Below are positions 26,251 to 51,796 of a stretch of DNA of 64,000 nucleotides, piece by piece (positions within the stretch are counted from its first letter, which is position 1; every line of letters begins with the position of its first letter). The stretch is taken from contig CM068757.1 of NCBI GenBank assembly GCA_035084275.1, forward strand, positions 7,750,001 through 7,814,000, read 5' to 3'. The DNA comes from Hydrolagus colliei (lineage: Eukaryota). The translations under genes and the position numbers were made by a program. The notes below the pieces were generated by a model. That model saw only the letters and a program-made list of their open reading frames with translations, was not told where the DNA came from and searched no databases.

Positions 26251-29200
26251 AGTTGACAAATGTCCAAGGAAACTTCCAAGGGAATTATGGCTAGTGATTT
26301 TGAGCAGTAACCCTGCCTTTCTCCTTCCCCCACCTCACGTCCAGCTATTAGGAAAGTATTACATTTAAAGCATTGCCTCATACTTTGGCTGCCTCTTGAA
26401 GATCACAATACCTGTATAAGTATTTTACTTCCAATTCCTTTTGTTCCACATTAATTTCAATCGAAGTACAAACTTTGTGTTCTTACATTGAATTGTTGAA
26501 AGGGAGAATAAATCCACTGGATAATAAATTCTGTAACTTTCTCTGGCACAGTAGCTTGGGGAAACAGGCCCAAACGATATTTTGGGAATTGTATATTTAG
26601 ATTTTGATGATGACAATTTACACTTGAAGATGAATGGGTCTGAGTAGAAACAGGATCTGAAAGCTTTGTGCTCAGAATCCCTGATTTTTTATTTTATTTT
26701 ACAGATAAAACTCAGTAATATTTCCTGAAATAGTGACACTTTTGAGATTGTAAATGACTTTTTGTCTTTTTGGAGTTTGTTTAGAAAGTACAGCTGCAGC
26801 GAGTCCAAAAAGGAGATCAGCTTTCTTGCCAAATATGGCTCGAACAGCTTTGTAGAAACCTGAAAAAGTTTTTTAAGTAAATGAGCAGTCTCCTGAGGAA
26901 TCCGCCCCGTACCCACTCCATTGAATAACGTTTTGTGCATTTCAAATTTACATTGGTACAGTGTCTTTGACTTTGGGAGGGTGTCCCAAGGCACTTAACA
27001 ATCCCAACTTGACTGGTTTTGAGAGATTTCTGTGTTGAACTCTTCTCTAGGAAATAATGAATCCTTCAATTTGTGTTGTGTGTGTGTGTACACTTCTGCA
27101 TAAGGATACACTTGTACTTTAACTTGTACATGTTATTCCATATGTGCATGGAGAGGATATGGGTAGTGCTTTTTCTATGAAGCTGTCAACTTCCCAATGT
27201 ATTTCTTTTTTTTGTCTCTGCTGGTAACCCTTAACATTCCTTGGAGTATTTCTTACTCTGTTTAAAGTGTGTGCAATAGTTTTGTTTTTAGTACATTTTC
27301 CACCTCGTGGGAGCTTGGGTTTTACAGTGTGGGATTTCACTGCCTCATAAGTGGAGTCGTACTTTCATCACTATTTATTTATTAACACTTCTGTTATCAA
27401 TCATCGGTCCCTACCCTTCAAGTTTGAAAAGCGCTATATCAAATGCAAGTATTGTTATTATTATTCATTTGTCTTAACACAAGCTGCATCTCCCCTTTAC
27501 TGTATTTGGATGTCACGATCCAACCACAAAACGTCCAACTGCCTGATAGTCCACCTGTAATGGGGGTTAACCAAGCTCCGCACAGAAGCCAGCTTACAAT
27601 TAGCTGTAATTGTAAGGTGGGCACTTAAGAGTTTGGGTTTGGAAGATTGCAGTCACGACAATACGTGTGCACTGTTCTACTCCACAGGGTACATCAAGTG
27701 AGTAGCAAAAGGCACAGCATGACCCAGGTGATTGTTTGCGCACCATCAGACAGAACAAACAGTTGCTTTTAAAAGGTCAGCTCCACCTACATATGTGAAT
27801 CCAACTTCGAGCAGTATGTGCCAGTAAATAGCAAACTGAGAATTCTGAAGGAGCATTTTGATGTGGTTATAAATTTGCGTTTCCTTTTGAATTCAGACAT
27901 AGGTGTCTTTTAATGTAACATTATAATAACTTTTATGTGTCATAGTGCCTTATCACGTAATCAGAAGGTTGCGAGTTTTCTATGAAGTGCAGTGCATTTT
28001 GTAGGCTAAAGTGGCAACCAATTTGTGCACCTCAATGACCCATAAACAGCCGTCAAGTGATTATTTCTGTTTGCACCTGACTAGAGTGAGAGAGAAAAAT
28101 GCTTGTAGGTTTATTTAACTACAGTAGACCACGTTGGTATGATACTGGAAGACGCTCTCTTCTGTTTACAACAGGCCAACACAACCTTGGCTTATTGTCA
28201 CTTCTGAAGGATAGTAGCTTGGTATTATAATATGGCAGGGGTGGGGTGGAGGTCAAATAGGTTTTCTGAAGGAATGAGATTAGATGAGCTTTCTTCATCC
28301 AAATTGATCTTGTGAAAGAGAAGAAAAAAAAATTGGTCATTTCAATCCTCAACTGTTTGTGCGACACCACAGTGCACAATTGCCTGCCGGGTTTCATCCA
28401 TAAATATATAGTGAATTCACTTTACAGTATATTTAGCGAAGCACTTTGAGAGTTCAGAAGACGTGAAAAGTGTCTATCTGACATTGCAGCGCTTCCCCGA
28501 GCACTACACTAGTGTGTCAGCCTTAGACTGTGAGTTTATAAATCCAATTTAACCCTGCGGTGAACTAAAGACTGTCACAAATCCTGTACAGTTAATCTAG
28601 GTTTATTAATTCAGATTAGTAATGGTTATAGATAGAATTTCCTTCTTTAGAACCTGGTATGAATGGTTTGCGATGCCAAGTTCCAACTCCCTGTCTCTTC
28701 TGATTCTCTTCCCGAATCGATCTCTCTTTATCCAGTTGGAAGATGACTTTTCACATAATCCCATTTTATATAAGATACTGTAATGTCTTTTTTTCCCCTC
28801 TAGTTTTCCCTCTGAAGGAGAATGGATTAAACCCCATCCTTTTCAAGCTGCAAATGAACGTGAATTCTTTTCACATGGGAAAATAACTGATAAGGAGAAA
28901 GCGAAATGGACAGCTATTTGGGAGGATTTCTGTTTCTTAGTCTTGGGATAAACAAACGTCCAGGGCCGTGCTTCTCTCTCTGAGCCTCCTTCCTTGTTTT
29001 CACATCTGTGCTCAAGGACATGATTACTCCACGTTAACGTTGTTGTTGTACTCAATTCTTAGATGGGAGGATGGCAATAGGACGAGGGAAAGTTATCAGA
29101 ACCTAACCTCAGCCAGGGTCAAGCCAATATATCTTCAACTTTGCTAACTCCGATTGGCACAAGTACCTACTCAAGGTCCCTAAGTTAGTCATTTAAAACA

Positions 29201-32200
29201 AACAATCCTATGGGACGGGTGGTATTCTAGAAGTGTACACAGGTTTATTAAAAACCGTATTAAAAAGCCTGGCATCACAATTCTACTTTCACGTAATATC
29301 TAATGCATTCATTACAGAATTCTTACAAGCTCAAGCTTACAATTTGGAACTTTAACCAACAATCTTCTTTAGCCAGAGTCTAGAGTGCCACCAGCTGTGT
29401 CAGGCTGACACCTAATAATGGATTTGCTATGGGTTAAGTGCTGTCTGATTTTTCTTTGTGTACGTTTGACTTTCTCCAGCTGGAAGCGACTGCTTTGTTG
29501 TCCACCTTTTTTAAGCAACATTAAATTACACATTTAAAAAATGGGAAAAGTTATAAGCTCGCCGGGACACACTTGCAGCAGGGGAGTAGAATAATGCTTA
29601 GCTTAACCCACGGTGGCAAATTTACTACATGGGGCATGCAGAGCAGACCAGCCCACTCCAATCTTTATTACCTACTCGCCCAGGTCAGCATGCCTGCCTC
29701 GGAATCATTAAAGCAAAATGTAATTGCTATTTAAAAAGCACTGCAATCTGCCAAATAACCCATTACGCCAGTAATCGTTCTACTTTGGCTTCCTCCTGAT
29801 GGTGAACTATTTGACTTAACTGTGGCTTTAGACTGCCATTACCCTGCATGTTTACTCTGGAAGGCCAAAGGGCCTTCATTCCTCATCCAAACCAATCTTG
29901 CGATGCGCTGAATGGTATCGGTGTGGTACATTAGATTTCTTTACTGGATTATTCCACTTGGCTGCTTAACAGACTGTGGTTTCAACAACTGTTTTAATAA
30001 TCCTCGCTTTCACTATAGTATTTTTTTACGTTGAGAGAGCCACTAAAGTGCTTCACAGGGTTTACTGTAAGGTGTAGTGATTGCATTTTTGTAGGCGAAT
30101 ACGACAGCCAATTTCCACACGAGCATTACCCAACAAACGGAAGGGAGGTGCTATAAGATGCAGTGACTGCATATTTTGTTGTCTGCATAAATGCAAGCAA
30201 ATGCAAGTTTAAAAAAAAATATATTGTACTCAATGTAAATACTGTGCCTATAATTGTTTTATCCCCAACCCCCTCCCCTCAATGGATTATTTCTTTAGGC
30301 TGGGGGAGTCTGAGAGTGCTCCAGTGTGGCAGTGAACTTCTTCATTTGTAGACAGACTTGAATGCCTCTGTTGGCTTGCTGGGAATCTGTTTCAGGGCAC
30401 TGATCTTGAAGTGAGTGAATAAGATGACGGCCTCTTTGTGAGTAAGCTGACAAGTCACAAATGCGATACAGTGTGATAAATGTGCTTTCAGCTGACTGGT
30501 AATGTACGTACAGTTCCTACCTTTGCCACAAGTGAGCTGGTACGACCAGTACACATGAAGGTGCAGGACACCACCTGGACAGCTGTCTTTGTAAACCGAT
30601 CTGCAAACATGTTGTACAAGCTTAAGGAAGGGAAAAATATATGCTCGTTGTGATTTGTCTGCGCTGTATGCGACTAGAGGTATAAATTGTTATTGTTGTT
30701 GAGTCTAGTGATGTGCACTTATAATGGGAAAGGGCTTCTGTAGAACACTACAAAAACCTGGGTTTACTCTCACCTCGAGGAGATTTGCTGCTGGTCCAGA
30801 AGTCCGCCTCCCACCACCTTCATCTAATTACTCAATAAATAAGATCTTAACAATGGTTACACTCTTGTCCTGAGTTGACAAGAGATTCTCTTGTTCTGAG
30901 TTGCTTTGAGTCCAAGTAATGGAGGTTTTCCAATCCTGGAATGCTGCCGATTGTAATAATATTCAGAAGCCTGAGGGCGATCTGCTTGACTTGCCAGGAA
31001 CTTTCCACCAACATTTCAAAAAAACCTTTAACTAGTTGGCTTTTACGTGGGCCGCAGTAACACCAGAGTTCCAGCGGCAGTCATGTGAATATGGTTTGTG
31101 GTGAGAAAGATTAGGGTTCAGCCAATGTTGGCCAATGGATCTTGCAGTGACTCAGCGGAATTTGTACAGGTCTGCGTACGCAGGAGATCTTTGATCGCAG
31201 AATATGTAGGTCAATCAGGGGATGAGGCTGTTCTCGACTTTCTGGCCTCTCTGATATCTGCCCAACAGGACTGGAGGTGGAGGCTCCTTACAAAATAAGT
31301 TCCTAAGGAGGCAAATGTGGTGGCTAATTTGGGTTAGCAGTGCCCTGGCCACAAACAATGAGCTGAGCATTCGAGTCAGTTGAACCTTCTTGGGTGAGGA
31401 TTATTTATTGTTATGTACTCCATTTCCAAACCTCAGCTCCGTGCCTTTTCTTTAGATACGTCGACCTTGCAAAAACTTCTGTCAACCAACTCCACAAAAC
31501 CATCTTTTTGTCAATCATATCGACATGAAAGGCACTCTATAAATGTAATTTTGTTGTTGTTGTCTCCTCTTCTTACCAATATTCAATAATCATCAACATT
31601 TCCTCACCTTTATCAAGGTTCCAGCAAGTTAGTTTTAAACAAGCCTGAGAGAGTCGATTTTCTGGCCAACAACAATGTCTTATCAACAATATTGAAACTT
31701 TATGTTCTCTTAACATGCTTCACAGTTCCCAGCTGCAGTATTTTCGAAGCAAACAGGTCTAGGAAAGGTGGTGGAGATTAGACCCTAGACTTGTTTAAAA
31801 AGCAGCTGATGCAGTGTTGGGGGTGGTGGTGGGTTGGGGGGTGGGGTGGGGAGTATGGCGGAATGGTACGTTGGGTATTCTGGAGGGATGAAATCTGAAA
31901 GATCTTTCAGGATTATTATGATCCTGTGAAGTGATCGCCATCACATCTTTTCCAGCACTAGCTAGCCTGCAACATATCGCCACCTCCTGCTTAAACTAAT
32001 GCATTGCGTATCCATCCAATACAATTTCCATTTACTATATACTGTACTGTATATAGTAAATGGAATCTACGTCGGGAGGAAGTCTCACAGTACTGGATGG
32101 ACATCTGTAGGTGGAATCTATGGGGAACAGGGGTCAGGAGAGGACAGGTGACCGAAAAGCAAGGTGAAAAAGGTACCCTTTGAGATGTGCCTTGAAAGAG

Positions 32201-33687
32201 GGGAGGGATGGAGTGAGCGAGTTGGAGGGATGCTGTGATGAATTTGCAGAGAGCAGGGGCTGAATGGATGGTAGTTTGCACTATGGTGGGGCAGATAGCG
32301 GGTGGGGGGCAGAAGACAGGATATGAAGCAGGCCAGTTCGCTGAGCTAAGGGAGTGGCTGGGAAGGTGGGGTTGGAAGAAGTCACAGAGACCATGGAAGG
32401 ATTTGCATGTAACAAAATAAACACTGTTTGGGGACACGGACTTCACCTGTACCATCTCTGTGGAGTTATGTCAGTAAAAGAACATTATTTGTATATTTTA
32501 TCTTGAGTGACTAATTTTTTTTAAGCAACTTGGTAACAGATTTGCAGACATTTTACTCTGTACTACTCTTCTTAAAAACTGTCACCTCACCAGGCTGATC
32601 TGTTATCTTGAACACATCTACATAATATAAATTACAAAGTGCAGTCTGACCTGCGTAATTGTACTTGTCCTACATGAAGGACATTATATTCACTCAGTGC
32701 AAGTTGTTCTTGTTGTTCGTTTAAGACTGTCACAATGTTGGCTTTAGACCTTAGTCTGCCTCCCTTCTGATAGTAATCATAATATGTGCATGTTGTCCAG
32801 CCATTCAGAACCTCTCAGCACCTTTCCCAGTGAGCTACTTTAAGCTGCGTTCCTCACATGGTTGGTAGGGTTATTAGACTGTATAGTGGTGGGTAAGGCA
32901 GCAATTTCAGCAACGGATTTCTCACAAACCAAGCAATTGTTTGCTACTTCTGCCTACCGCATAAACAATAGCCACAGTTTATAATATCCTGTGAATTGCC
33001 CTGAGATGTTCTGCTCACAAGGTGCTATATCAAATTTAAGGATGATTATCAATAATATTCAGCAAACTGAGCAATAATCCCACAAACTGGACAGATTGCC
33101 CGATTTAACATTTTACCGATTGGGATGAGGAAGGAGGACTGATCTGGATGCCAGGAGAAATCTTTGATGCCCACCTCAATAAGCAGATGGGACATTAACT
33201 ACTACTGTACCATCTGTGTAGGTATATGTGGAACAACATTATTTGTATATTTTAGCAACTAATTTTCTGCCTATTTGTTAACCTTACCCATGCACAACCT
33301 TCCTCGCACTGTGGCCTTTTGCATGTGTGTGACACCTCATACTTCACCCATTTGCATTGCATCACCCAGTGGATGTTTTGCGAATTGGTTAACTTGGCTT
33401 GAACCCTCGTTTTAAGGTACAGTATTTATTTTCCAGAATCGCTGTCTTTTCCCGCCCAAACACATCTTGTTTTTGTAGAATACATGAACCTGAGGGGTTT
33501 CCCCACCTAACTGTGTGCTTGTGATATTTACTCAAAGTTTCTTTAAATAGCTTCTTTAACTGTTCGTATTTCCTTCTTGATATGCCTGACCAAATCCTTG
33601 GACCACAGAATTAATATTCATGTAAATTTATTCTGCATGGATTCCAGTCCATACTTTTTTTTTAAATCCTGAGTTCTAGATGGTGAT

Positions 33688-33900
33688 ACAAAAACAGAAA
33701 TCACTGGGAACACTCAATAGGTCAGGCAGCATCTATGGAGAAAGGAAAGTGAGTCAATATTTCGGGTCATTAACCCTTTGTCAAAAAAACGGTGACTCAC
33801 TTTCCCTCTTCCATAGATGCTGCCTAACCTGTTGAGTGTTCTCATTTTGTGGGAAATATTTCTGTTTTTGTTTCAGAATTCCAGCAATGCAGTATTTAAC
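33688..33900. mobile_element. Palindromic (foldback) element, Penelope-like terminal-repeat type
   Basis: Arms of about 70 bp (acaaaaacagaaat...ggcagcatctatggag...gtgagtca / tgactcac...ccatagatgctgcc...atttctgtttttgt); second copy at 39843-40032. Confidence 0.75.
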
Positions 33901-34306
33901 ATTTTTGTTCTGAACGGTGAGTCCTGTTTGTAACTAAATTTTAGTCATGTGGACTGACTGATGGGAATTCTGCTCTGACATGATCCACATTGGTGATGTC
34001 CCTCCTGTTACTGAACAAATGCTAGTCACAGAAGTGCTCAGAAGCTTTATTGTGTAGTAAAAGAGTTAAGAGATGATTATATCTGGTGTACTTTATTTGA
34101 ACTCTTATTTACTAAGCTAGCGTGGTAGCCCCAGATGTCCCTTTTTGCTTTGACTCGAGAAGCATTATTTCTTCTGTCATTGACCAATTCCAGCCCATTT
34201 TTGATGCTAGGGGACAATGCCTTATGGATAACACCATAATCTACTTAAGCATGTAGAAGGATGAATAGGTCATAGAAGAGGAAAGTCTAACAATTGCTGA
34301 TCATTT

Positions 34307-34677
34307 GATAATAATTCTTGTATTTGATATAGTGCCGTATCACATTTTTGAGTCGACTCCAAGCGCTTCACGGAATATATTGTAACATGAATTGACTCTA
34401 TTTTTGTAGGCTAAACATGGTTAGCCAAATGTGCACAGCCATGTCCCACAAACAGTTGTGGATTGAGTGACCATTTAAAAAAAATTGGTGTTTTTGAAGG
34501 GATTATTACCCCTGGGAAAAATTATCCGCCAATCGACTAAAAGTAGGTTTCCCACTTACTGCGAGGTAAACAGGCGAATGAGGTAAGGAAACTTGCCTAG
34601 GGTTTCACCTTGCTAGGGAATTGATCAGGTTCTCTTGCTTGCAATGCAAGAGTGCTGTAAACCAATATGCTACAGCC
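34307..34677 (-). mobile_element. tRNA-derived SINE family A, longer older variant
   Basis: Tail ataattcttgtatttgatatag at 34307; head ...gggaattgatcaggttctcttgcttgcaatgcaagagtgct...tgctaca. Confidence 0.8.
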
Positions 34678-36541
34678 ATTTTCAGGTTAAGCTAATAATG
34701 TCTCCTCCTCATGGAGAATCTTGAAATCAGACCTCTTTTACTTATTGTACTGCTATTTCCAATGGTTCAAAGAGAACATGTGTTACCAGGACATCCTAGT
34801 CAGCTCCAGGTTTGCTGGGTTGCTGACCTGAAAAATATATTTTTGGAACATCTAAGAACATCTAAGAATATGCATCCATCCTCCCATCTCCACTAGTGAA
34901 TGATGGTTAACTTCTGTTTGCACATCCCTATTCCATCAGGACAGAAACCACTATGCAGTATTTATTTAGTCTTTACACCAAGCCTAGAGTCCACTAACAC
35001 TCTCCTCAAGTAAACACTGTTCCAGTAGAAGTTAATGGACTTGGCACCATCTACTTTCATTGACTTCATTTTGCATGTTTTGGGGAGGGCGGACTCAATT
35101 CTTCTAATCTCAAGTCCTGCTCATTTGTAAAGTTATGTTCTTTTTGTTGTGGTTGGAAGTATTTCCTTTCACACTTCTCTACGATCTTCAGTAACACAGA
35201 AGGCTTGTTTCGTTTTTCATTGGTCTTCTTGTGTTGCCTTGACCCTACTCGCTAAAAGGTGGTGTGCAGGTTTATTTGGCTGTGCTCTGATGTTTTTTCT
35301 CTCTCCCTATACCATCAGTAATTCACAATTATTAATTTGCATAAATCATTTGAACTTTGCACTGGACACCTTTCTTGCAATCTCTATGTTTGCGCAAGAA
35401 TGTGGCAAAAGACTTTCATTCTACAGTTCAGAAAGCAACCATGTGCATGAGATTAGCGCAGAGCCGCTGACAAAATAGCCCTTTCACGCCCACACGCAGA
35501 TGAATCCAGCCGCAAACCTTTTAAATGCAAACTTTTGAAAATGTAAGAGAAATGCATGACTTATCTTCTTTAATCAGCCCCCAAAAGAGGAAATTCTATA
35601 TTTCACGGAACCCTTTTATAAGAACTCTTTTATAAGAAGTGGTGAACCTTTTGTTTTGTAAAATAAAATTATTCTGATCTCGATCTTTGGACCAACAATA
35701 ACAAATACAACTTGGATTTATATTGGCACCTATCATACAGGATAGCTGCCCAGTGGCAGGGTTGGAAGCCAGGGAAGGGAGTAAGGAGATTGTCTCTGCT
35801 TGCTTTCCCACTCCATTTTTCACTGGTCACTGTGGACCTTTGTTGTTTTCCAGGGACCCTATTATTGGAGTTCATCCTTGAAATGGACAATACAGAAACT
35901 AACATAAGAGGAAACCCAAGCAGGACATTCAGTCTCTGCATGACTTGAAAGACGAGCTTGTAGCTGTTCCCTTATCAGTGAGTGAGTGAATGAGTACCAA
36001 TGAATACCACTCACTAATGAAGTCAATCTGACAGTCATTAAAACTAGTTTGCATGATCCTCACCCTGGCCAGGCTCCCTCACAATGTAAACCATATTATT
36101 TATTTTTAAGTGTATGACTTTTTTAACCGTCAGAGTTGTTGATCAGCAAAGTAATTTCTTATTAATTGAAATGAAATTCAATATTCACCTTGCTGTGGAG
36201 GACAGGGTTTAATACTTGAAAAAAAATGTTCAACGGTACAGTTGAAATAGCTACTAGCACAAAGGTGAAGATATCAATGAAGATGTGGGATCGATTTCAT
36301 GGTGACTACGTTTAAAGTACAACTTAGGAAGTCTCAGTCGTAAGGCATATTTCCCTGGTGCTTGGCCAAGCTAGGGAATGAATAGCTATGTGTTGTAGTA
36401 CTTTTTAAAAGAGAGGAAATGTATTTCTTTTTAATCGGGAAATCAAACTGAATATGTTGATGCTGTATGTGTGGTTAATCTCATTTCCTGCTGTTGATTT
36501 TGATGTGTGTGTTTTTTTTCTTGCTGCTCTGGCTACCTCAG

Positions 36542-36645
36542 GTGTTATCTGTTGCCCTGCTTGCAGGCAGACGTGTTTCACAGGAGATGTAGTGGAAAAC
36601 GTGTTCATCCGAGACTATCCCCGAGCCGTAGAGAAGATGGAAAAT
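36542..36645 (+). CDS. TRIM66: TRIM66 exon 2: C-terminal RING ligands (GVICCPACRQTC...VVENVF...KMEN)
   Basis: Pyrimidine tract then ctcag|; donor AAT|gtaagt; phase 1 in, phase 0 out; completes the C3HC4 RING. Confidence 0.92.
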
Positions 36646-39600
36646 GTAAGTGCAAATCTTCTCTCTCTTTCCTCCCCCCCCACACCCACCATCCCTGTTC
36701 CCACGTGCCATGCTGAATAATGTGCGTTCTTTTTTGTTAATGTGACTCAAGTTGGGCTTTGATGTGTAGCGAAGAACAGATGGACTGTAAGAGGCTTGTT
36801 AAATCAAAATACCTTGTGTGTAAATGGAGCTCGCATGGACGCACTTGCCATTGGATTGTGGAGTGAGTACACAAATAACTTCAGGGATATTGACACGTTA
36901 CAACCTTTTAATGTCGCACATTGGTTGCTTTTGGTTTTGTACTTTGCCTAAGTTGAAGAGCGGACTGGGTTTGCTTATTGATGACCAGTGTCATTGATCC
37001 GTATCAGAACTGGAGGTTAGTTTATGCAATTTACTGCTAATGTTGCAGGAGATTAGGTGCTTTTCTGTTTTTATTTTGAAATGAGCAGCGATTCCCTGTC
37101 CTTGTTTTAATGGTCCGTAGCGCTCATTTGTCTTCCATTGTGAGTGGGAGCAAAGCGAAGTTTTCCCCCTTGATCAGATGAATGTTGCAAACGAGTGTCG
37201 TGCATATGCAATTGTAGAACTGTTTCCATTTCCTTATCTGAGGAGATACCTGGCAATAAATGCTCTGGCATAGTGATGTGGTTGCTGAGAGTTAGTTGAT
37301 ATCACCTTGGTTTCTGTGCGTGCTAAACACTGCGTGCGATGTACTCATAGTATCACCTGCTCCAGACCCTCTGCCTCTAACAATGCATGGAAGACATTGA
37401 ACCTTTATTGATTTTAGTGGGGAAGTGGAGAGTGTATCCTTTGGTAGAAAGATTTCTGAAGCTGGCATAGAGGAAGGAAGACCAGCGTCGCCATTGACTG
37501 ATGTGCCGCATGATATGGCACAGACTGGTAGTTAACTGTTTATTCTTGTGCACTAAATAAAATGAGGACCTATATCACAAGGACATGTTGTACGTCGCAA
37601 TACGTTTATCACAAGACAGGTGACTCTGCGCTTACGGTTTTAAATATCTTATGTTGCCTTCTTGATGAATACGGACCAACCACAACAAACAGAACTTGGA
37701 TTTATATTAGCAGCCATTGTACAGCATAGCATCTCCAAAGAAGGAGGGTGGCATTGATGGCAACACACACCTGCTGTAATCCCAGGTGTATGTAGATTTA
37801 CACAGAAGCCATTCAGCCCAACTAGTCTGTGTAATATTGTGGCACAGGTCAGTCAGTTCCAATGCTGGTCTTCCTTCTCCACCCTGTAGCCCACTCCAGA
37901 AATGTGTCTTGGGTGTTCAGAATTGTACCAAAACGAATGAAGAGATAAGGAAGGTGCAGATGGATTTATTCTGGGAGCTCAATGTTTGCAATCTGAACAT
38001 ATTGGTTAGTGAGGGGAGATATTGGTTTATTTACAACAGGATTGTAAATGTGGGAGGTGAATGGTGGCATTATGTGGGACCTTGGCCAATGAGTATAGGA
38101 TGTAGCTCTTGACTTGTCTACGTTTTAGGAAAAGGAAAGTTTCAGTGTATTTGCTGCCCACCAATTCCATTTGTAGTTGTTATAAGAAAAGGCTGGAGGC
38201 TGCCTGCTGCTGCAAAACTGAAGGGAAATCTCTCGTTAGAAGTCTTGCCTCACTGGAGAGGAGAGGCTAGTGTGTGAGTCGCAGTAGCACAGAAACAGCT
38301 TGTACGTATAAGGCTGAATTTCTCTATTCTGTGCGCCGCCCACATTATCATTCCTTGACTCTCATCAGTCCTCGAGCTCCATCATTATCTCTCTCTTTGG
38401 TACCTATTATTTATTCCCTCTTAACCCCCTGTATCCCATTCCGATGCCTAAATTCCAGCTTCCGCCTGTCATTATTACTGCCTCCCCTCTCTCTATCTCA
38501 GCCTCTCTATCGCAAGTATACTTTTGCTGCACTCTTTGCCATCAGCCTCTTTATTCCAAGTCCTCATCCCCATTCACAAATTCCAAATACTGTACCAACT
38601 TCCAGTCTATAGTAAAATAAAACACTGTTCAGAGTCTGCTTTCATGCTGGGATATTGGCATGGATCCAGGTTGCAACAAAAATGTGCACTTGTTTTATTA
38701 GTCCGACTAATTATTTTGCGAATTATTACTATTATTAGACTATTAAAAACAAATTCACATCCAATGATCCATTATGTTAAAGGCAGCACTGCTCCTCCTA
38801 CTTCCTAATTCTGCAAACCTTGTTAATTCTACAATTTAACACCAGGTTGTAGGTGTTAGATGCTGAACATGACTTTCTGTGGCTTTTGTGCACTTACAAA
38901 GCTTCACTGCTCCTTTTCTACAAGCAAAGCTGTTCCCTTGACTGTAGCTGATGAACCTTCAGCTTGTTTTCTTCTTCATGCCCTGATCTCTCACTTTGAT
39001 CTCGAAACATTGCGTCCAAGTGATTGCATCTAATAGGATCATACATTGGTTTGGTGGTTGGAAGCCAAAGCGGCAACAATATTCACACTTCTGCTTGAGA
39101 GAAGGATGTTTGATTGTAGCCTGAGGTCAAAACTTCTTTAGCTTTGTAAAACTGTTAGTGTGTATGTGGTTCAGCTGGGGACATTTAAAAGAAGTCACAA
39201 AGTGCTTACATACAGTTTTGTTGCAAAACTAGAACTGCCTTTATTGAGCTCCAAGATGATGTCCAGCATGAAGAGCGCTATGTAAATGCAACTTGTTGTT
39301 ATTGCGAGAAAAAAAAGGGATAACACATTTTCTAGGTAGGTCAGCTCACAAGAGCAAAAAAGCAAGTTTTCTTTGTTTGTTGTGAGCGCGGATGGGGATA
39401 AAATGATAGATGTGGTTTTGCGGAAGTTGTGCTGTAGCCTTCCTGTGATACATTGCTTTGTATGCTGCAGCAATTGTACACCATCACTTAGTGTATCGGG
39501 GTAGCACAAGTATTGCAAATCACAAGTTAATACCGTATTGATAGAGAATGTGCTTGTTTGTCTCCTGCTCTGCTAGTCAGTTTTCGTCAGTCTCCACTGG

Positions 39601-39842
39601 CTTTATATCTTCCCAGCTGTTCAATTTTCAAGATGCCCATTCTCACCCCCAAACACCATCCACTCAATAATACTGTGTGACATTTTATTGCTAATGGTCT
39701 GACAAATCAAAAGCCTTTGAAACTGCATTTGAAACTCCGACACCCTGAGATATGATGGTGTTGGGGATGGTGGTAGTGGGATGGTGGCAGGATGATGCAT
39801 TCACATCTATTTGAGGTTCTAAACAAACTATTAACAATTTAG

Positions 39843-40032
39843 AATAGAAACAGAAATCTCTGAGGACACCCAACATTTCAGTTCAGTGATCTTTCATCAG
39901 AAGTCTGATGAAACGTCATCGCCCTGAAATGTTAACTCACTTTCCTCTCTCCATAGATGCTGCCCGACCTGCTGAGTATTCCCAGTGACTTCTGTTTTTA
40001 TTTCAGATTTCTGCAGTATTTCTGCAGTATTT
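39843..40032. mobile_element. Second copy of the palindromic Penelope-like element, left arm partly deleted, central hammerhead-like motifs retained
   Basis: Shares ccatagatgctgcc.gacctg.tgagt.ttc and ttctgttttt.tttcaga with the 33688 copy; centre tttcatcagaagtctgatgaaa is palindromic. Confidence 0.75.
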
Positions 40033-41649
40033 CTGTTGGACCTTTGAGGATTGAAGCTGGCTCTCAAAAGGCTCTCTGTGTGTGTACCACTCATTGCTGT
40101 GGTTTCCTATAACTTGTGCGAAAAGCTGTGTTAGGATGTAGCATGTCTCAATGTTAGGATTTTTTGTGGTGAGTACGAGCGCCACTGTTCATACTTGATC
40201 GCCACTTGATCAGCCGTGCTAAAAATAATTCTATTAATAGTCCAGGGTGTCTGCTCTCTCAAAATGCAGCTTCTGATTCAAGCTTTTGGGTTTGCAATTA
40301 GTGAGAAATGTGAGAATTAAGGTCCAGTCATCTCACTCCGTTGCTGGTTTATAGTACTAACTCACTGGTTTATTTAAACAGAGGGCCTTGTTAGGGCCTT
40401 GCTTAAAGATCTCAATGGCTCGTTGCATACGTTCTAATGATCTGCCAGAGTTTCGCCCTAACCCTATCTCTGCAATCTTTCTATCCCGGCTGCTTTGGCA
40501 TGTCTTTTCCCCCCCCCCCCCCCCCCCCCCCCGCCCAACTTTCAATCTACCATCGGTGTATGAGCTTTCAGCCATCCTGTGCCTCACTTTAAACTATCCT
40601 CCTGACTTGAAAGACGCGATGTAGATTATTGTTATTGCCCCACAGGGTGATGGGTGTAACTCCCTCCCCACACTCAGGTTCTGACTTTATTCATGGCCCT
40701 GGGAGCCAGTTGTCAAGTGGAGGTCATGAACTATCCGAAAGTGAGGGGAAAAATATTGTGGTTTTATTTTAGTGGGGTGGGGGCTGGAGGTGGGTTCTTT
40801 TCATTTGTTCTAGGAATCCTGCCTACTAATGGCAGTTACATACCCTTTGCACATAAAGGTAATCTGCGGGCAATTTACCTCTTTGACTGCGTCTGTGGTC
40901 ACCCCTGCCCTCCCCACCCTGCTCGATACCTGTCCTCGCCACCGTAAATTGCTTTGAGTTGTTATTGTCACTGAGGTGAGTTGTGCAAATGCAAATTGTT
41001 GTTATCAATAGACAATTCAGATTGCCAACTGAGGACATCTGCCTCCCAAATACTCCACTATCTCTATAACTCTTCTACGGCCGTTTTTGTAGCTTGTTTC
41101 TCATTCTGTGTTTTGCACTTGTTCCTTTGTGAGTTCTTTGTTTTTCTGAAAGTAACATTTATTGTGGTGCGGGTGTTTCCTGTGAGTCAGCTACCCAGCA
41201 TAACACGCTGCAAGCTCACAAATCATCCTGCTTCACACGTTAGTTTTTTATTGGCCCCTGGAAGCCCACAGTTCCTGCAGATAACCTAAGGTTCAAGCGA
41301 TTGTCTTTCCAAAGAAACAAGAGACTGCACTATTCTGTGGCCACCTTTAAATCACTGAGCAAACCTAACTTGACATGGACTGTCTTTGCAATGACATAGC
41401 TCTGTCAATGCAGGATGACACTTGAATCCACAGCAAATATCGACCATCTCATTCAGACAAACTGTAAGGGTATCGTCAGATTAGTCTACTGCATAACAAG
41501 TAGGAATGCATTTGAACGAACAATAATTAAGATCTTGCAGTTCAGTATAAAGGTTGTCAAGGGCAGCACTGCAACCTTTTGACCTAGATTGAGCTTCATG
41601 TGGTGTTTTGCTTTCAGCTGATTTCTTACGGGTTCTGTTTATTCCTCAG

Positions 41650-41794
41650 TTCTGCTCAGACTGTGAAGAAAAGAAGCAAGCTTTCAGTTTCTGCTCGGAC
41701 TGCACCAAGTGGCTGTGCAATACCTGCCTGGTTGTACATACGCGTGGGAAGGAAACTAAACACCACATGCTATCTGCCCAAGAGAATACCACAG
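41650..41794 (+). CDS. TRIM66: TRIM66 exon 3: B-box 1 (FCSDCEEKKQAFSFCSDCTKWLCNTCLVVH...H)
   Basis: ctcag| acceptor, CAG|gtaact donor, phase 0 to 1; Cys/His spacing of B-box type 1. Confidence 0.93.
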
Positions 41795-41872
41795 GTAACT
41801 TCAGTGCAGAGCTCTTCAAAGCAGCACAAGGGGTTTGATTGACCGCAGTTACTCAGAGGATGCACAAACTAG

Positions 41873-42335
41873 ACTCCCTCAGCATAGCGGTTAGCGCACT
41901 CGCCTTGCAAATGAGTAATTCACAGAATCATAAAATTATACAGCACAGAAGGAGGCCATTCGGCCCATCGTGCCTGTGCTAGCTCTTGTAAAAGAGCTGC
42001 CTAAATCAATCCCACTCTCTCCCCAAAGCCCTGCAAACTTGTTCTCCCAAAATAATTGTCTACTTCTCTCTTAAAAGTTGCTATCAAATCAACTTGGGTT
42101 TGATTCCCGGGTGGGGCGAAACCTTAGGCAAGTTTTCCTTACTCCACACGCCTCTGTTTACCAAGCAGTAAGTAGAAACATGGGTGTTAGTGATTGGCAG
42201 AACAATCCAGGGGTAAGAATTAAAAAAAATTGGTTTTGTAATGCACAACTGTTAGTGGGACCCTGCTATGTACAATTGGCTGCCGCATTTCACCCTCAAA
42301 ATACAAAGTTCATCCACTTTACAGTACAACATTTA
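41873..42335 (+). mobile_element. SINE family A with its head interrupted by a CR1 3' fragment
   Basis: A-box half at 41873-41920; B-box half resumes at 42091. Confidence 0.8.
41921..42090 (-). mobile_element. 5'-truncated CR1 LINE, 3' end only
   Basis: cacagaatcataaaattatacagcacagaaggaggccattcggcccatc... is closely similar to the terminus of the CR1 at 23607. Confidence 0.85.
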
Positions 42336-42946
42336 TAGTACAAAAGCTGGGTGACTGGATACATAGCTGTTTAGTTAAATTCCATTAATTGGTTAAACTT
42401 TTGAAAGGGAAGTTCTCCCAGTATCCTGGATAACAGAAGACTGGACAGTCTTCAAATCCACTACTGGGACGCTGCTGTGTGCAATTGACTGCTGCTTTTC
42501 GTCCCCCAAAATGGTGAATTCACTTTACAGTACATTTGGTGAAGCACTTTGGGATGTCTCCAAGAGGGTAAAAAGTGCTATATCAAATGCAAGGATTATT
42601 ATTAACAAATCCCTCTCCCTCTGAAGAATTTTTTTTGTGGGATATTGCTGTGCACACCTTTGCGGTTGCGTTACCTATAAATGTACAGTTGCAGTGAAAC
42701 CTGTGAAGCTCCTTGAGACATCCTCCCGATGTGATATGGTGCTATGACCAAATGCAAGGATATTTATTCTTATTATGAGTGGGGCAAATGGGAATGTCTC
42801 AATGACGCAGAGGTTGGGAGCATAATAAGCCCAATTGATAGAAAGTCCAGACATGAAATGGACTGTCCAGTGTTGAAAGCGTGCAATACTGGTTTTCTTC
42901 CTGCTTTGATTCTTATCCTGAGCTTGTCGCTCTGCTCCGTGTTCAG

Positions 42947-43079
42947 GTGATGGCTGCGACTCCGACGAATTCCCACTGTACTGTCCTCTTCATAACAAGC
43001 AGCCGCTGAAGCTCTTTTGTGAGACCTGTGACATGCTGGCCTGCTGGAACTGCCAGCTAACAGAACACAAAGAGCACAG
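42947..43079 (+). CDS. TRIM66: TRIM66 exon 4: B-box 2 ([33 protein letters not shown])
   Basis: ttcag| acceptor, CAG|gtaaag donor, phase 1 to 2; canonical TIF1 B-box 2. Confidence 0.95.
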
Positions 43080-43278
43080 GTAAAGGAAGGGCACACACCA
43101 TGGGGGGTGGGGGGGGTGGCGAGAGACCCAGCTCCATCAACTCTGTCTGGGATACGACCGAAATATTTTTTTCTTTGGTCAGCCGAGTGTCTGACACTTG
43201 TGGAAACCCATCACCATGTTTCAGAGTATCCAGACCAAGCTGGGAATTCCATGCAATGAACCCCATGGTAATTTAAAT

Positions 43279-43470
43279 GGGTGTCAGCCTGGCTCAGTTG
43301 CTGGCACTCCCCGCCTCAGAAGGTTGTGGGTTCAAGCCGTCAAGTCGGACTTCGAACTCACAATTTTGGTCCCAACATTCCAAAGCGAGTGCTGCGTTAT
43401 TGGAGGTGCTGTCCTCCGGATGAGACATGAAACCGAGGTCCCATCTACCTGTTCAGCTGCACGTTAAATG
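43279..43470 (+). mobile_element. Older DeuSINE/SacSINE1-like element (family B)
   Basis: gggtgtcagcctggctcagt...agaaggttgtgggttcaag head, then ggaggtgctgtcctccggatgagacatgaaaccgaggtcccatct, which resembles the recalled Deu domain. Weaker relics at about 7620-7830, 11759-11890 and 29340-29412. Confidence 0.6.
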
Positions 43471-43586
43471 ATTTCGTAGCATGATATGAAAGGCTTAGTC
43501 ATTTCAGCAGTTTGTGTCTTGAAAATAGTGTTTTTGTGCGAATGTAATGAGCCCTAAGTATTTCAAACTCTTTGGGTATTTTTCAG

Positions 43587-43703
43587 TTTCAAGTACCTGG
43601 ACGATGCTCTACAGAACCAGAAGAATGTTTTGGAAGAACTGACTGTGAAAGTGGAGGAGAAGAAAGTCAGTATCCAGAACTCCGCCAAGCAAGTGCAGGA
43701 CAG
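43587..43703 (+). CDS. TRIM66: TRIM66 exon 5: coiled coil (FKYLDDALQNQKNVLEELTVKVEEKKVSIQNSAKQVQD)
   Basis: tttcag| acceptor, CAG|gtgatg donor, phase 2 to 2. Confidence 0.93.
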
Positions 43704-44094
43704 GTGATGTGTTCCATTCACTACAAAAGAGGGAGAGCAGTGTTTGGGGCTAACCTCACAGGTTAACTGGTGTAACCTGTACTGTAGCTTGTATGAGAGG
43801 TGGTTCTTTACTTGGAGAGGGGTTTTCCTCTTCTCCTTTACCCATTTACCATGAAAGAATGACTCCCCTAAATCTCGAAGTGCTTAGATTCTGACCTGAC
43901 AATGGAGCTGGTCTTTAATATTTCTTTATAGTTGGATAGTGGAGGAGTGGGTGGGAGTGAGGGAGGGAGAGAGAAGGTAAACAGAACATGATCCTTGAAG
44001 CTCCTACGAAATCCACTCTGAAACGAATTAGTGTTGTAAGTTCCGCTAATGACTGTGTTGAGGTACTGACACTGGGTTTCAATCTGTCTTCCAG

Positions 44095-44209
44095 ACTGAA
44101 TGAAGTGAAGCAGATGCAGAAGAAGGTGGAAAATCAGATCAAAATGGCCAAGATGATTGTGATCAACGAGCTGAACAAGCGTGTGAATGTTCTGATGGAC
44201 CAGCTGGAG
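44095..44209 (+). CDS. TRIM66: TRIM66 exon 6: coiled coil (LNEVKQMQKKVENQIKMAKMIVINELNKRVNVLMDQLE)
   Basis: ttccag| acceptor, GAG|gtagac donor, phase 2 to 0. Confidence 0.94.
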
Positions 44210-45384
44210 GTAGACACTGAGCTGACTGATTCTGCCAACACTTGAGATCTATCACACGCTAGTCACTACACCATGCAGTAAATTTGTGAAGCGCTTTGGA
44301 ACATTTCGATGACATGATAAACTGCCATATTAAATCAAATTCTAGTCACCATTGTACGATAGACCTGGGTTGTACAAGGCAGTACGTTTCACCATGGTTA
44401 TTTATTGGGTTGAAAAATAAGAGAAAACGGGAGCAACATCTAAGAGTAATGGCATGCCTGTGTTACAGTATAATGACACACTGATATTTTTTCCTGTAAC
44501 AGATGAGTGGTTTAATAGGTGCACTGCCCCATGCAGGACATTTGATTCTTTTTTGTTCATGTTTTCTTTTCTAATTGCTTTACTTCATCTCTAAGCCACC
44601 TCCCTCGCACCTTGCCTAGTGTGAGAATTAATTGCTTTGTACGTCTCAGTAATCGCGCACACCGACTTCTACCTTTCTCCCATGCACTAGGACTTAGCCA
44701 AAGCATTAGCCAAAGGCATCCAGGAGGTGGGTAGGAGTTGTAGAAACAAAATGCTCTTAAAATGCAATGGCAGTAATGATAACCCTCAGTAGTTGAGTGC
44801 TGAGACCATTTGACTGATGACAAAATATTCGCTGCAAAGAGGTTGCCTGTCTGTATGACATGTTGTAATTGACTTACAGCTGTAACATTTCTCCTCTTGA
44901 GAGATGTTTAACAGCCACAAATACATTACGTCTGACAAACAGTGTGCAAGGCTGGGAATACATATACAGTAGTTCGGAAAAAAAAATCAATGCCACTGGA
45001 TTTCCTACAGATTCAGTCACCACACATGACAGTGATTGCTGCAAAGTGTTTTGAGACATAATGCCTGTAACAACAACAACAAGTTTGATTTATATAGCGC
45101 CCCCCACGCCGGACGGCGTCTCAGAGCGTTTCTCAATAACTGATCCCGGGCCATCAAATGAAGGCTTAGCATTGCTGTACTGTAATGGGCTACAGACCCT
45201 GATTCTGTAAGAAGAAAACTGTCTGCTTAAGTGTCTGAATAAACTCTGTCTATAGCAGAGGAGCCAGAGTAGAATTACACCAGGCTTTGTCCAGTCTACT
45301 TCTGATGTGTGTGTATGTGGGAGGGGGGCATGGGGAGCAGCCTCACCCTCTGTGCTGACATTGGGTGTCCCTTTCCTTACGTAG

Positions 45385-45531
45385 CTGGTCACCAACGAGC
45401 GGAGTCGGAAGCTGGACCATCAGCTTCAGGCGGTGGTGGGCGTGTGTCGACATTTGGAGCACGTGCTCAATTTCATCAACTGGGCCGTCTCCAAGAAGAA
45501 CAGCATCCCCTTCCTGTTCAGCAAAGAGCTG
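45385..45531 (+). CDS. TRIM66: TRIM66 exon 7: coiled coil (LVTNERSRKLDHQLQ...NFINWAVSKKNSIPFLFSKEL)
   Basis: cgtag| acceptor, CTG|gtgagt donor, phase 0 to 0. Confidence 0.94.
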
Positions 45532-46211
45532 GTGAGTGTGCCTGGTAGCGAATGTCACGCATACATACACACACACTGGCGAGTGAGCTTGGCAAGGGTG
45601 CATCAGTCTAGAAACAACGTTTAGGCTGTGAAAAGGGTATTAATGTCACACGGCACTGTAAATGTATTGATGATTGTACATTTTTTGGAGTACAGAGTAT
45701 GTTGACCATCAGAACAGGCACTTTTAACAACTGATTGACTCCCCTGAAGGGCTTAGCTCTTTTTAGGTGCATTTGCTATTGAGTTAGTGATGCAGATGCT
45801 ACTGCTATTATCCAGCAGTAGATTAGGATTGCGGTTCACTCCCCGTTTGAGGTGACTATCTGGTGAGAACCGCAGCGAGGGGAAATCATGAGATGCAGTG
45901 AATTTTTCTTCCAGATGCTCTTCTGTGATGCCTCCCTGCCATGTAAACAAAGAATGCTATTGCTTTAAGATTACCGACGGCAACATTTGTAGAGAGTCAC
46001 GTATTTTGAAAAGGCCATGGATTATTACATTGGGATTCACTAGCAGCGACTCGGAGTTGCTAACTAGCTGGTGATGGGCAGTCACTGCTCGAAGCCTTGT
46101 GGGATGGGTGCTTAGGAGTGTTTGATATTGATGGGGTTGTGGGTTAATTTGGAGCTGGTCCGCTCGACGTCTGGTTATTTCCTGATGGTTTGTTTCTCGC
46201 ATTATTTGCAG

Positions 46212-46326
46212 ATCCTCTTTCAAACGCGAAGATTGCTGGAGACGCAGTGCAACGTGGACCTGGGTCCGTCCAAGATTCAGTTTCGCTGGGACTCTGACAC
46301 ATGGTCCAAACAGCTGTCTAATTTAG
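46212..46326 (+). CDS. TRIM66: TRIM66 exon 8 (ILFQTRRLLETQCNVDLGPSKIQFRWDSDTWSKQLSNL)
   Basis: ttgcag| acceptor, TAG|gtagga donor, phase 0 to 1; end of the TIF1 signature region. Confidence 0.93.
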
Positions 46327-46506
46327 GTAGGAAAATCTGCAAGTTACTGCGCGTTTGGTCCCCTGCCCCCCATTCCCTCCTGATCCCACGCCCCAGCTCG
46401 GGAGCAAAATCCTTGATTGTCCAGCGCTTTGGGACATCCTCCCAACCGTGAGAGCCTCTATCAAAATCTAATTTGCTGTTGTGTGTCTGCCTCCCTCCCT
46501 CCTTAG

Positions 46507-47420
46507 GCTATTTGTCAGCCGATTGTGAAAACCCAGTGTACCAAGAATGCCAGCCTCTGTTCCACCCAGGACCGGGGCCTTGTGACCTGACAAATCACGG
46601 ACAAGCGTTGCAGCCATCTCTCCTGCACCAGACTGCCGTGCAGCAGCAATTCTCCGTGTGCGGCAGCCACTACTTGAATGTCGATCCCGTGCCGCGTGAG
46701 CCCGTGAACTGCGCGCAGCACCCGGCCCATTTGCCCGAACACCTGCAACGCCAACTGCAGCTGCATTTTGGCGGGTTGCACCAGGGCCTCTCGCAGCCCG
46801 TGGCCCTGCAGGCGTCACCCAGCCTGCAGCGCTGGCACACCGTCAGCCCTCACCCCGGGCGTGAGCGCGGCACGCTGGTGGAGCACATGTCAGCTGCGCT
46901 GTACTCGGTGCAGGCACAAATGCACACGGCTCCCGTGCAGCAGCAGCAGCAGCTGAAGCAACAGAGAGTGCTGCAGCCCAAACCGAAGCATCCCAAACTG
47001 CAGCTCCCACAGCAGCTGCAGAGGCCGTTGTCGCTCTGCCAAGCGCAAGCCGGGAAGCAGCCCTCTCCCCCGCCGCCCCAGCCGCCGTGCAGAGAGGAGC
47101 ACAAAGGGTCCCTCGCCGAGCAGCGCAGCCCGGAGGTGAAACAGCGGCGAGAGCCACAGCACCCTGACCGAGGGCCGAGCAGCCTTAAGCAGCTTCTGGA
47201 GGAACCACCACAACAGAGCAGCAGTCAGGGCCCACAGGGTGAGGAGCGAGTCACCGGAGGCCAGCGCGACCGCCTGGTTGGGCAGCAAGAAGCGGCGATG
47301 GAACCCCAATTCCCAGGGCCCCCGAGAGAGACCGCCAGCGACCACAGCTGGCACCCAGGCCTGGAGCAGCCGAAGGAATCCCAGAAGATGTCGTCCCTTG
47401 CCGTGGCCGAGCGAGACGCC
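46507..47420 (+). CDS. TRIM66: TRIM66 exon 9: large GC-rich exon encoding the Q/P-rich linker
   Basis: ccttag| acceptor, GCC|gtaagt donor, 914 nt open in frame (ORF 46473..47507), phase 1 to 0. Confidence 0.88.
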
Positions 47421-47996
47421 GTAAGTGGCGAGCCTGTGACCTGCGCCTTGCACCCACAGCTTTTTCTCGCAACGTACACAGTTGACCCACTTTACAGGAC
47501 ATTTTGAGAAAGTGTTTTGAGGCATCTCAAGGCGCTACATCAGATGAAAGTATTATTCCACACCAAAGGTGTCTGAACGGTTTGATTTGTCTCAAAGGGA
47601 ACAGCTAGTTAGCTCGCTGGCAGAGGAGAGGAACAAAGAGGTTTGGTGGGGTGGTGGGGGGTGGGGGTGAGGGGTGGGGGAGAGACAGGAGAGTTTGAAA
47701 TGTCGGCGTCAATACGAAGCGCAGCATTGACACATCTGCATTGGCCTTGGGGAGGAAACTGCGAGTTTGGTGGTTTTATGCAGCTGGGAATTCAAGATCC
47801 TCGAGATCGTACACGAGCTGATGGGGTTTCTCTTCAAAGCAACACGTTCTTCCCATATCTACAATTGGGCTGTGCCATTGGCGCCGGTTACTGCGACTGT
47901 CTGGCGTGCGGTCCACCGGCTGCTAAATTTCGGTTGAACCAGAAAGGTCGCGACCTTGCGTTAACCCTCATCTGCCTTCTCCATCCTCTTCTCCAG

Positions 47997-48179
47997 TTGC
48001 CCAATTCCCAAAGTGCTGAGGAAGACCAACGCCCAGCGTGCCGTGGACAAAGCGACATCCCTCTTCAGTCCCTGGACTTAACAGCGCCTCACAGAGCTGA
48101 TGGGGAATCAGTGCCGAAGTCCAAGGAGCCCTCGGCATGCTTGTTGCTCTCGTGTCCTGTGAAGAAAGGAAGAATAAAG
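47997..48179 (+). CDS. TRIM66: TRIM66 exon 10 (LPNSQSAEED...SLDLT...CPVKKGRIK)
   Basis: Long pyrimidine tract then ctccag|; AAG|gtaaac donor; 183 nt, phase 0 to 0. Low-conservation linker, so support is splice signals and frame only. Confidence 0.75.
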
Positions 48180-50014
48180 GTAAACGGCTTTCTGGACAAA
48201 TGGCGTTCGATTAGTTGGTGCCAATGTTTGGTCTCAAAACTGATTGGGGGACTGGTTGCAATGTACGGTCTCTTTTATTCACAGAAAGAGGAGGCAAAGA
48301 GCGCCTGAGAACTGTTGAAAAAATGTAAAACTTGTTTACGCGGATGGAAACATGCTGATAAGTGACCACAACTACAGTGCTTTGTAAAAGGGGTAGCATC
48401 TCGGAGCATTTAAAAGGGGCTCCGCCTGACACTGAGCTGGGGTGGTAGTGGGGAGATGATAGTGAGGAGGGTCAAGGATGGTCTGGACCCCATGGATGTG
48501 ATTGTGTGCTTTCCCCTGTGATATTAAAAGTGATGTACTCAAATATCTGCTTTTTAGGGAGATGGAGGGGTGGGGGAGTGAGGGAGGGAGGCGATCTCCT
48601 TGGAGCTCACTTAGCTTCATGAGCTTGGTTATGGAGTGAAGGCCTCAGTGGTTCGGTTCCTTAGCCAGGCTGGTCTCCAATACTCCAGGGGTGGGGCAGC
48701 TGGGGATAACATTGCATCAGGTTACGAGACCCATGGTCCCACCGCACACCATCTCTCAGTATCTCACCCCATCAACACAGCCTGTTCCCAGCCCTAATCC
48801 CAGCTGCTGATGCTCTCCTAGGCTAACAAATATCTTTCCCAGCCCAGATCCCAATTTAGCAGCTACTCCAGCTGAGGGTTTACTTAGAAGCCGAAGCAGG
48901 CAGGGACCACCCACTATTTGTGCAAAATAGAAATGTGTTAACCCTTAAGTTGACGAATCCTACCATGGTTTCTATCTTAATTCGCGTCTGTGATACAGAA
49001 ATACCCGAACTCCACCCATTTCTATATTTGTCCATTGCTCAGACCCACACCCAGCACTGCGAAGCGCTTTGAGACATCCTCTTAACACGAAAGATGTTGC
49101 ATGCATGTAAATTGTGTTGCGATTGCCACACGACGAGTTCCTGTAGTTAGCTGGCCTGATAGCAGGAGCAATTCAGACTGCATTCATACACTCGATAAAT
49201 AAGCCTTAGGGATTCCTTGGTGATGATTTCAGTAATTGGGTAGGGGGGCTGTGTTGAATAATTTCTCCTCCAACAGTCCTTTGGGTGTGTATTGTTTTGC
49301 TAATCTCCGTGGAAGCTGCTGCTGTACTAGTAAAACTAATACGTTTGAGGAGGTACCTGCAAAATGTGGCTGACATGAAGGGTTGAGATCTGTCCTTGTG
49401 TTCAGTGCCCATGTATATGTTTTGTGAGATGTTTCAAACTCGGTGTGATTATCTCATACTCTGCTGACTCAGTGAGTGTCTGGCACTTGTCGGGTTCACT
49501 CAGTTGATCGGAATGAGGGACCTGGAAAGTGACTGCCCCGCTGATGTTGGCTCTTTTGGCCTGAGCATCAGATTGCTTCACTGTAATCTGCACTTTCTTG
49601 GACATTTGGAAATGTGACTGAGCCCGGTTTGAGCTCCCCTCTCTGGGTTATTCACAGCTCCCAGCTGCGAAACCGGCCAGTGCAGCTCATCAACCACAAA
49701 ATAGTCACTCCAATTTACAGTAAACCTTATGAAGTGCTTTGACGTCTCGATGATGTGATTCGGGTGCTTTATCAAGCATTATTATTATTATTGCCGACCT
49801 CTGTTAAATGGAATCTGAAGTTGAGTGCTCAGAAGACCATTTCGACCATTGTACTCGAGCCGGCTCTCTCTAAGACATATTGTTTCGTACCGGTTTGAGA
49901 GTGACTGGTGTAATTGCTTTGGATTAATTTGCCTTGTGTTCAAGTGGATTGGCTTTCACTGTGTTGCATTGTTCAACGTTACCCAGTACTGATTTATCCT
50001 TGTTTCCATTGCAG

Positions 50015-50164
50015 CGCTCTGCTACAGGCAGCTTCAAACACACATCCCCTAGAGAGGTCGATGTCGCCCCGGTTGCTAACTCACCCAGGGTCGGCAGCCC
50101 TGTCGAAGGGGTCCCAGCAGAGAAGCTGGACGTGACCTGGGTACCAGGCATCACAGTGTATAAA
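50015..50164 (+). CDS. TRIM66: TRIM66 exon 11 (RSATGSFKHTSPREVD...PGITVYK)
   Basis: ttgcag| acceptor, AAA|gtgaga donor (alternative in-frame donor TGG|gtacca at 50140); 150 nt, phase 0 to 0. Confidence 0.72.
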
Positions 50165-50431
50165 GTGAGATTCTGTTAAATAATTAGCCGTGTGACCTCT
50201 GCTGTTCTGTTAGCTTAAGGTTTCCTGTTCGCCCCAGTCTTGCAAAGAGTTGAGGGCCCTGAAGTCCACCTCACCTTAGCCGGCAAGATCATTTGTCTTC
50301 AATTTGGGACATTTCAGGGATCCTGTGATCACTGCACAAATGATTGGAACAAACGGGGTGTAATTTCTGCAATGTGTGTGGGTTTAAGATTGAAAGCTGG
50401 CTGTGAAAAACAATTATTATTCTTTTTATAG

Positions 50432-51733: not shown

Positions 51734-51796
51734 GTGAGCAGTAATGGACCTCAATTCTTTCTTTCTCCCTCTCTCGCCCCCACGCTCCCAATAATC

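Follow-up and report, generated by a model that had tools for sequence, protein, structure and literature searches.

We examined a window of 64,000 nucleotides (nt) of the Hydrolagus colliei genome (GenBank assembly GCA_035084275.1, contig CM068757.1, positions 7,750,001 to 7,814,000 of the forward strand; all positions below are counted within the window), which holds a complete TRIM66 gene on the + strand (2507..55418). The ATG at position 36637, inside the second exon of this gene, is probably a real and deeply conserved alternative start, orthologous to the start of the short TRIM66 form that lacks the RING domain, and likely works in H. colliei as well. All eight RING zinc ligands are encoded 5′ of this ATG, so a protein begun there would be RING-less and would keep B-box 1, B-box 2, the coiled coil, the PxVxL motif, the PHD domain, and the bromodomain. 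A two-promoter arrangement of RING-bearing and RING-less transcripts has already been published for the mouse (PMC11077763); the novelty here lies in how old it is and in ray-finned fishes having probably fixed the short form. The gain is therefore one of evolutionary depth and of a testable question, with no new mechanism.

A sequence-only reading of the window had singled out aagATGg, near the end of exon 2, as an internal start in strong Kozak context, and the sequence bears this out: the frame is open from the exon-1 ATG, the phase-0 junction of exons 2 and 3 reads MEN/FCSDC, and the Met lies four residues N-terminal of B-box 1. It had also stated, correctly, that exon 2 contains no other in-frame ATG and that one out-of-frame ATG (gagATGt) runs directly into TAG; the latter is the only ATG in exon 2 earlier than the internal one, and a further ATG at 36644 straddles the donor and is lost on splicing. 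Contigs of one DNA-like sequencing run, from an individual that may not be independent, showed no difference inside exon 2; the run behaves as DNA, with even coverage of introns, and its listed joints are repeat-derived.

Identity of the gene was established by comparison with TRIM66 of Callorhinchus milii, to which the window gave 19 colinear exon matches (tblastn, 55–100% identity). The PHD exon had its best match in that protein (84%), exon 2 was 100% identical to it over 35 amino acids, and exon 1 was 66% identical to its residues 1–71 (tblastn) and scored above cut-off with the Pfam RING models. Top matches in the PDB were TRIM66 PHD-bromodomains. In a tree made with FastTree only, in which the C. 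milii protein stood in for the window gene, 16 proteins named TRIM66 formed one group apart from 23 other TIF1-like proteins (SH-like support 100). In 10 kb of DNA upstream, viewed as a list of open reading frames, no neighboring gene was identified. The domain features of a TRIM66 orthologue are present, with B-box 1, B-box 2, the coiled coil, PHD, and bromodomain assigned by Pfam on the C. milii orthologue (including PF25287) and the matching window exons, and the PxVxL motif represented in the window by PYVRL, in the exon near 51563–51733; the label PxVxL for TRIM66 is that of PMC11077763.

Conservation of the Met was assessed in 68 exon-2-bearing records (17 cartilaginous fish, 1 coelacanth, 2 amphibians, 2 turtles, 1 crocodilian, 38 birds, and 7 placentals; birds excepted, each genus gave one record). 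Between the last RING CxxC and B-box 1 lies a linker of 28 residues in 67 of the 68, the alignment is gapless, and the Met is its sole invariant column (68/68, zero parsimony changes); the nine columns flanking it changed 4–18 times and the RING-proximal columns 2–7 times. A wider tally of stored non-paralogue proteins, from which 61 without the region at the N-terminus of B-box 1 and 29 without the Met were dropped, found the Met in all 154 records with an intact exon 2, and never Leu or Ile in its place; all 29 Met-less records lack an intact exon 2 (partial models, intron read-through, or another entry into exon 3). Alignment across vertebrates, which the sequence-only reading had proposed as a check, thus favored it, the Met being kept in cartilaginous fish, ray-finned fish, coelacanth, lungfish, amphibians, turtles, crocodilians, gecko, birds, marsupials, and placentals. 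Position 1 of the Pfam profile PF25287 is this same Met. TRIM24, TRIM28, and TRIM33 share with TRIM66 the layout of RING, two B-boxes, and coiled coil followed at a distance by PHD and bromodomain, as well as the exon 2/3 junction, but their linkers vary in length and the Met is a TRIM66 trait: it occurs at this position in 1 of 70 non-TRIM66 TIF1 relatives, which mostly carry Ser, Thr, Glu, or Lys there, and in none of the three paralogues in this genome, which have the same junction.

Gene models from other species begin at this Met in many lineages. Equivalence to the start of RING-less mammalian TRIM66 had been claimed from the human protein; it held for mouse isoform 2 and several whale, bat, rabbit, and rodent records, all of which start MARNCSEC with the same Met-x3-C spacing, and the human protein itself was absent from the matches. 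Records of bichir, reedfish, lungfish, opossum, wallaby, newts, and gecko and the current coelacanth models likewise begin at the Met, and among 12 hand-picked species, 11 have both a full-RING record and a Met-start record (six cartilaginous fish, two turtles, two birds, and one rodent). Entry into exon 2 from other first exons, another element of the sequence-only reading, is seen in gene models of related species: of 14 cartilaginous fish species, 6 are represented by a model with its start at the Met, 8 by one that enters exon 2 without exon 1, and 6 by neither. Ser replaces Gly at the phase-1 junction in three models, which points to a real, different upstream exon, as read-through of the acceptor would give Gly. 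Ray-finned fish were surveyed within the best 120 of 452 matches to a fish-weighted profile, 96 of which were ray-finned (95 named as such and one grouped by sequence); none of the 96 has a RING, 92 have the Met, and 87 begin at it. With the Met never lost while the RING is missing from every ray-finned fish record, these fish proteins suggest that the short form is the core product and the RING an option; the dispensable part appears to be the RING, not the short form.

The residues around the Met fit a maintained Kozak context without proving it. On the tree, the position preceding the Met underwent 11 changes, every one of them between residues whose codons begin with a purine, a class to which all 154 records belong with seven residue types; most records follow the Met with Glu, Ala, or Asp, which gives G at +4. 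In an AlphaFold model of a skate N-terminus (mean predicted local distance difference test, pLDDT, of 79), the five residues before the Met (104–108, pLDDT < 50) fall in a low-confidence linker, which we counted in favor of a role as a start. As an observation in its own right, skates have isoform pairs that differ by one residue at the exon 2/3 junction (MDT/C and MDT/QC), as tandem acceptors 3 bases apart would give.

Several results weigh against this interpretation. Chance retention of the purine-first class has P of 0.0015–0.18 under neighbor-column nulls and 0.08–0.19 under a neutral codon model, which makes the Kozak-retention test only suggestive, and the G at +4 is broken in the coelacanth (Lys) and in bichirs (Asn). 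The Met of the skate model (residue 109) lies just outside the low-confidence linker, where a packing role on B-box 1 is possible. Isoform evidence outside the mouse is automated annotation throughout, and a missed distant exon 1 can also yield a Met-start model, as happened in the old C. milii model, the newer one having the RING. Six of the 14 cartilaginous fish species have no model that enters exon 2 without exon 1; the absence of the RING in fish was judged on proteins, not on genomic DNA; and alternative leaders are unlike between genera, so the internal promoters may not be homologous. For H. colliei itself, a transcript start in intron 1 and initiation at the internal ATG are predictions from other species. 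Some of these points would suit a different history, which we consider unlikely, in which the Met was conserved for packing on B-box 1 and was co-opted repeatedly and independently as a start, in ray-finned fish, mammals, and others, when a promoter arose in the long intron 1, with no start in H. colliei. Such a history would agree with a Met at the edge of, not inside, the low-confidence linker, with the motif M-E/D-K common to sharks and teleosts, and with leaders that differ between genera and a Kozak test that is not decisive; it sits poorly with the lack of any Leu or Ile substitution in 154 records, with the different residues of the paralogues at this position, and with annotated Met starts on both sides of every major split.

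A number of observations concern the annotation of these records. In several passerine birds the alternative leader that precedes exon 2 is similar, as if the group had conserved a single internal first exon, and in a gar model only a remnant of the exon 2 end stands before the Met. The half of the RING encoded by exon 1 is missing from lungfish, coelacanth, salamander, gecko, and marsupial records, by loss or by missed annotation; exon 2 and its CxxC are retained in the coelacanth and salamanders. Zebrafish has an annotated trim66, whereas a 2011 study found TRIM66 in pufferfish only, going by the part of it available to us (PMC3137616). Several records that cluster or rank with TRIM66 carry the source label 'E3 ubiquitin-protein ligase TRIM33', probably through naming errors.

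How the short form would be made is best judged from the mouse, in which Trim66-203 bears the RING, Trim66-201, Trim66-202, and Trim66-205 are RING-less products of an internal promoter, and rapid amplification of 5′ cDNA ends (5′RACE) in testis gave RING-less forms only (PMC11077763). Mouse Trim66 (TIF1-delta) is an orthologous gene with the Met four residues before B-box 1 and the 28-residue linker, and both of its forms keep the B-boxes, coiled coil, and PHD-bromodomain; promoters and transcripts have been mapped there, which sets it apart from the window gene. By analogy with the mouse and with shark gene models, a second promoter would lie in intron 1, and its non-coding first exon would be spliced to the exon-2 acceptor at 36542; the ribosome would then pass, or re-initiate after, the out-of-frame ATG-TAG and start at the internal ATG. 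That a single promoter suffices, with leaky scanning or re-initiation on the full-length mRNA yielding the RING-less protein, is highly improbable: the internal ATG does have a strong context, but the exon-1 ATG is equally strong (aacATGg), three further ATGs stand between the two, which makes leaky scanning along the long mRNA unlikely, and the mouse uses an internal promoter (PMC11077763). The internal promoter was not located in intron 1, where a CpG scan gave one weak window (22501–22900), and a motif scan of introns 1 and 2 returned one ATF4/5-type site, no cAMP response element (CRE), no X-box, and 30 TATA-like sites, a scan with no chance control and no trusted cluster. On this view, the two-start design would date to the ancestor of jawed vertebrates, the short form would be the main chromatin reader and repressor, probably in germ cells, and the RING would be an optional N-terminal module. 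Ray-finned fishes have probably lost this module, which is retained by cartilaginous fish, a caecilian, turtles, crocodilians, birds, and placentals.

The window gene has a complete RING, with the eight ligands spread over exons 1 and 2 in an open frame. The residue after the last CxxC, which we take to be the linchpin position, is Arg in the window (following CPAC), and is Arg or Lys in 54 of the 56 records, out of 68, that have the full RING pattern (R 15, K 39, Q 2). Retention of ligands and basic residue at this level indicates that the domain is maintained, and that a 'mammalian loss' of the RING is the wrong description, as the sequence-only reading had suspected. Placental long forms retain all eight zinc ligands, and the mouse has its RING-bearing transcript (PMC11077763). 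The RING of the chimaera type resembles the TIF1 consensus more closely than the rodent RING does, in a ten-residue motif and in its Arg linchpin.

The interpretation added by the sequence-only reading was supported only in part, the observation of the ATG itself being right. It had suggested a switch between ligase and scaffold or dominant-negative forms, and this found no support. As a full proposal, an active ubiquitin ligase (long form) would alternate under regulation with a scaffold or dominant-negative partner (short form) that dimerizes with the long form or with TRIM24, TRIM28, or TRIM33, which we hold to be improbable. The ligands and basic linchpin kept from chimaera to rodents would suit it, as would the coiled coil present in both forms and the proposal that RING-less TRIM proteins regulate orthodox ones (PMC2533329). 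Active RINGs, however, carry a hydrophobic residue at the contact with the ubiquitin-conjugating enzyme (E2), such as L17 of TRIM25 and M24 of TRIM32 (PMC6487577), and TRIM66, which shares the eight zinc ligands and basic linchpin with RINGs of this active type, differs from them here: immediately after the second Cys, all 56 complete TRIM66 RINGs have K, R, G, S, or Q and never a hydrophobic residue (Q in the window). This position aligns with R69 of TRIM28 (numbering taken from construct limits), whose inactive RING is likewise non-hydrophobic there. The RINGs of TRIM24, TRIM28, and TRIM33 are monomeric and inactive alone in vitro, in a study that did not include TRIM66 (PMC6487577). Furthermore, the long form went undetected in mouse testis, so both forms may not meet in one cell (PMC11077763), and fishes appear to live without the long form. 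A switch between ligase and dominant-negative forms would be possible only with partners.

Sharks and rays may have a further way of removing the RING. In four elasmobranch models (Scyliorhinus canicula X2, Narcine X4, Chiloscyllium punctatum X2, and Hemiscyllium X2) the 104-nt exon 2 is left out and translation is placed at a +1-frame ATG of exon 1, so that the predicted protein is RING-less and carries another leader, of 64–71 residues; in the window the same frame is closed by TGA after 7 codons. The N-termini shared by these four shark and ray models were also considered as a new first exon in intron 2, a candidate rejected when tblastn identified them as exon 1 in the +1 frame. Taken together with the alternative start, this would allow a broader and more doubtful scenario, which we offer tentatively: alone among TIF1 genes, TRIM66 may have possessed two starts as an inbuilt switch ever since jawed vertebrates arose, in which the RING-less form is the indispensable repressor (and the only form in ray-finned fishes), a complete RING has persisted for more than 400 million years as part of a distinct long form whose ubiquitin-related role depends on tissue and partner, and sharks and rays have added exon-2 skipping, with exon 1 read in another frame, as a second RING-removing route.

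TRIM66 is presented as the TIF1 protein that lacks a canonical RING in reviews as late as 2026 (PMC13204414, PMC2533329), and our comparison finds the RING intact in many vertebrates, including placentals. Listed in PMC2533329 with TRIM14, TRIM16, TRIM29, and TRIM44 among RING-less TRIM-like proteins, human TRIM66 is given a layout of B-box 1, B-box 2, and coiled coil that the short form shares; the TRIM66 locus differs from these proteins in keeping a complete RING in many lineages, so that the lack of a RING there would reflect a long-standing choice between isoforms that hangs on a single invariant Met. TRIM33 is described as differing from TRIM24 and TRIM66 in that ray-finned fish have conserved its domain structure well, with no detail in the available text (PMC11603059). 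Two more mouse isoforms occur in olfactory epithelium, in a paper whose accessible portion never mentions the RING (PMC12700886), and the parts available of PMC6753139, PMC3137616, PMC3503706, and PMC11992055 contain nothing on this Met. No comparative account of the internal start or of its age was found in the literature within reach, which excluded most subscription journals; the original TIF1-delta paper (PubMed 15322135) may already describe isoform starts. Changing one ATG or one promoter would be a precise and cheap handle to separate the two forms in the settings in which TRIM66 has been studied, namely spermatids and paternal effects on offspring weight (PMC11077763), olfactory receptor choice (PMC12700886), and the DNA damage response (PMC6753139), and fish models would be able to report on the short form only.

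Table 1. Coordinates of TRIM66 features within the window
Feature	Position	Strand	Description
Exon 1, coding part	2507..2753	+	Start aacATGg in strong context; six of eight RING zinc ligands (CVVC, C-x-H, CKDC); phase-1 donor
Out-of-frame ATG in exon 1	2547..2570	+	+1 frame; closed by TGA after 7 codons
Intron 1	2754..36541	+	33.8 kb, boundaries set; putative home of the internal promoter and non-coding first exon
Exon 2	36542..36645	+	104 nt; tcag/GT ... AAT/gtaagt; last RING CxxC, RING C-terminal segment, linker, internal Met
Out-of-frame ATG-TAG start-stop element	36587..36592	+	44 nt 5′ of the internal ATG; by-product of Asp-Val-Val codons
Internal ATG	36634..36640 (ATG 36637–36639)	+	A at −3, G at +4; encodes Met115 in the long protein and, by prediction, Met1 in the RING-less one
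Exon 3, B-box 1	41650..41794	+	Acceptor tcag/TTC
Remaining exons	42940..55418	+	B-box 2, coiled coil, low-complexity middle, PYVRL (PxVxL-type), PHD, bromodomain, stop; colinear tblastn matches, 55–98% to C. milii TRIM66

Outside the coding exons, a long GA/CA-rich simple repeat lies directly 5′ of exon 1 (1990–2400), and short high-copy repeats occur near 31540, 42570, and 49070. Fragments at 23800–25250 (−), 60900–61700 (−), and 62800–63100 (+) have translations that resemble reverse transcriptases of retrotransposons of the long interspersed nuclear element (LINE) type.

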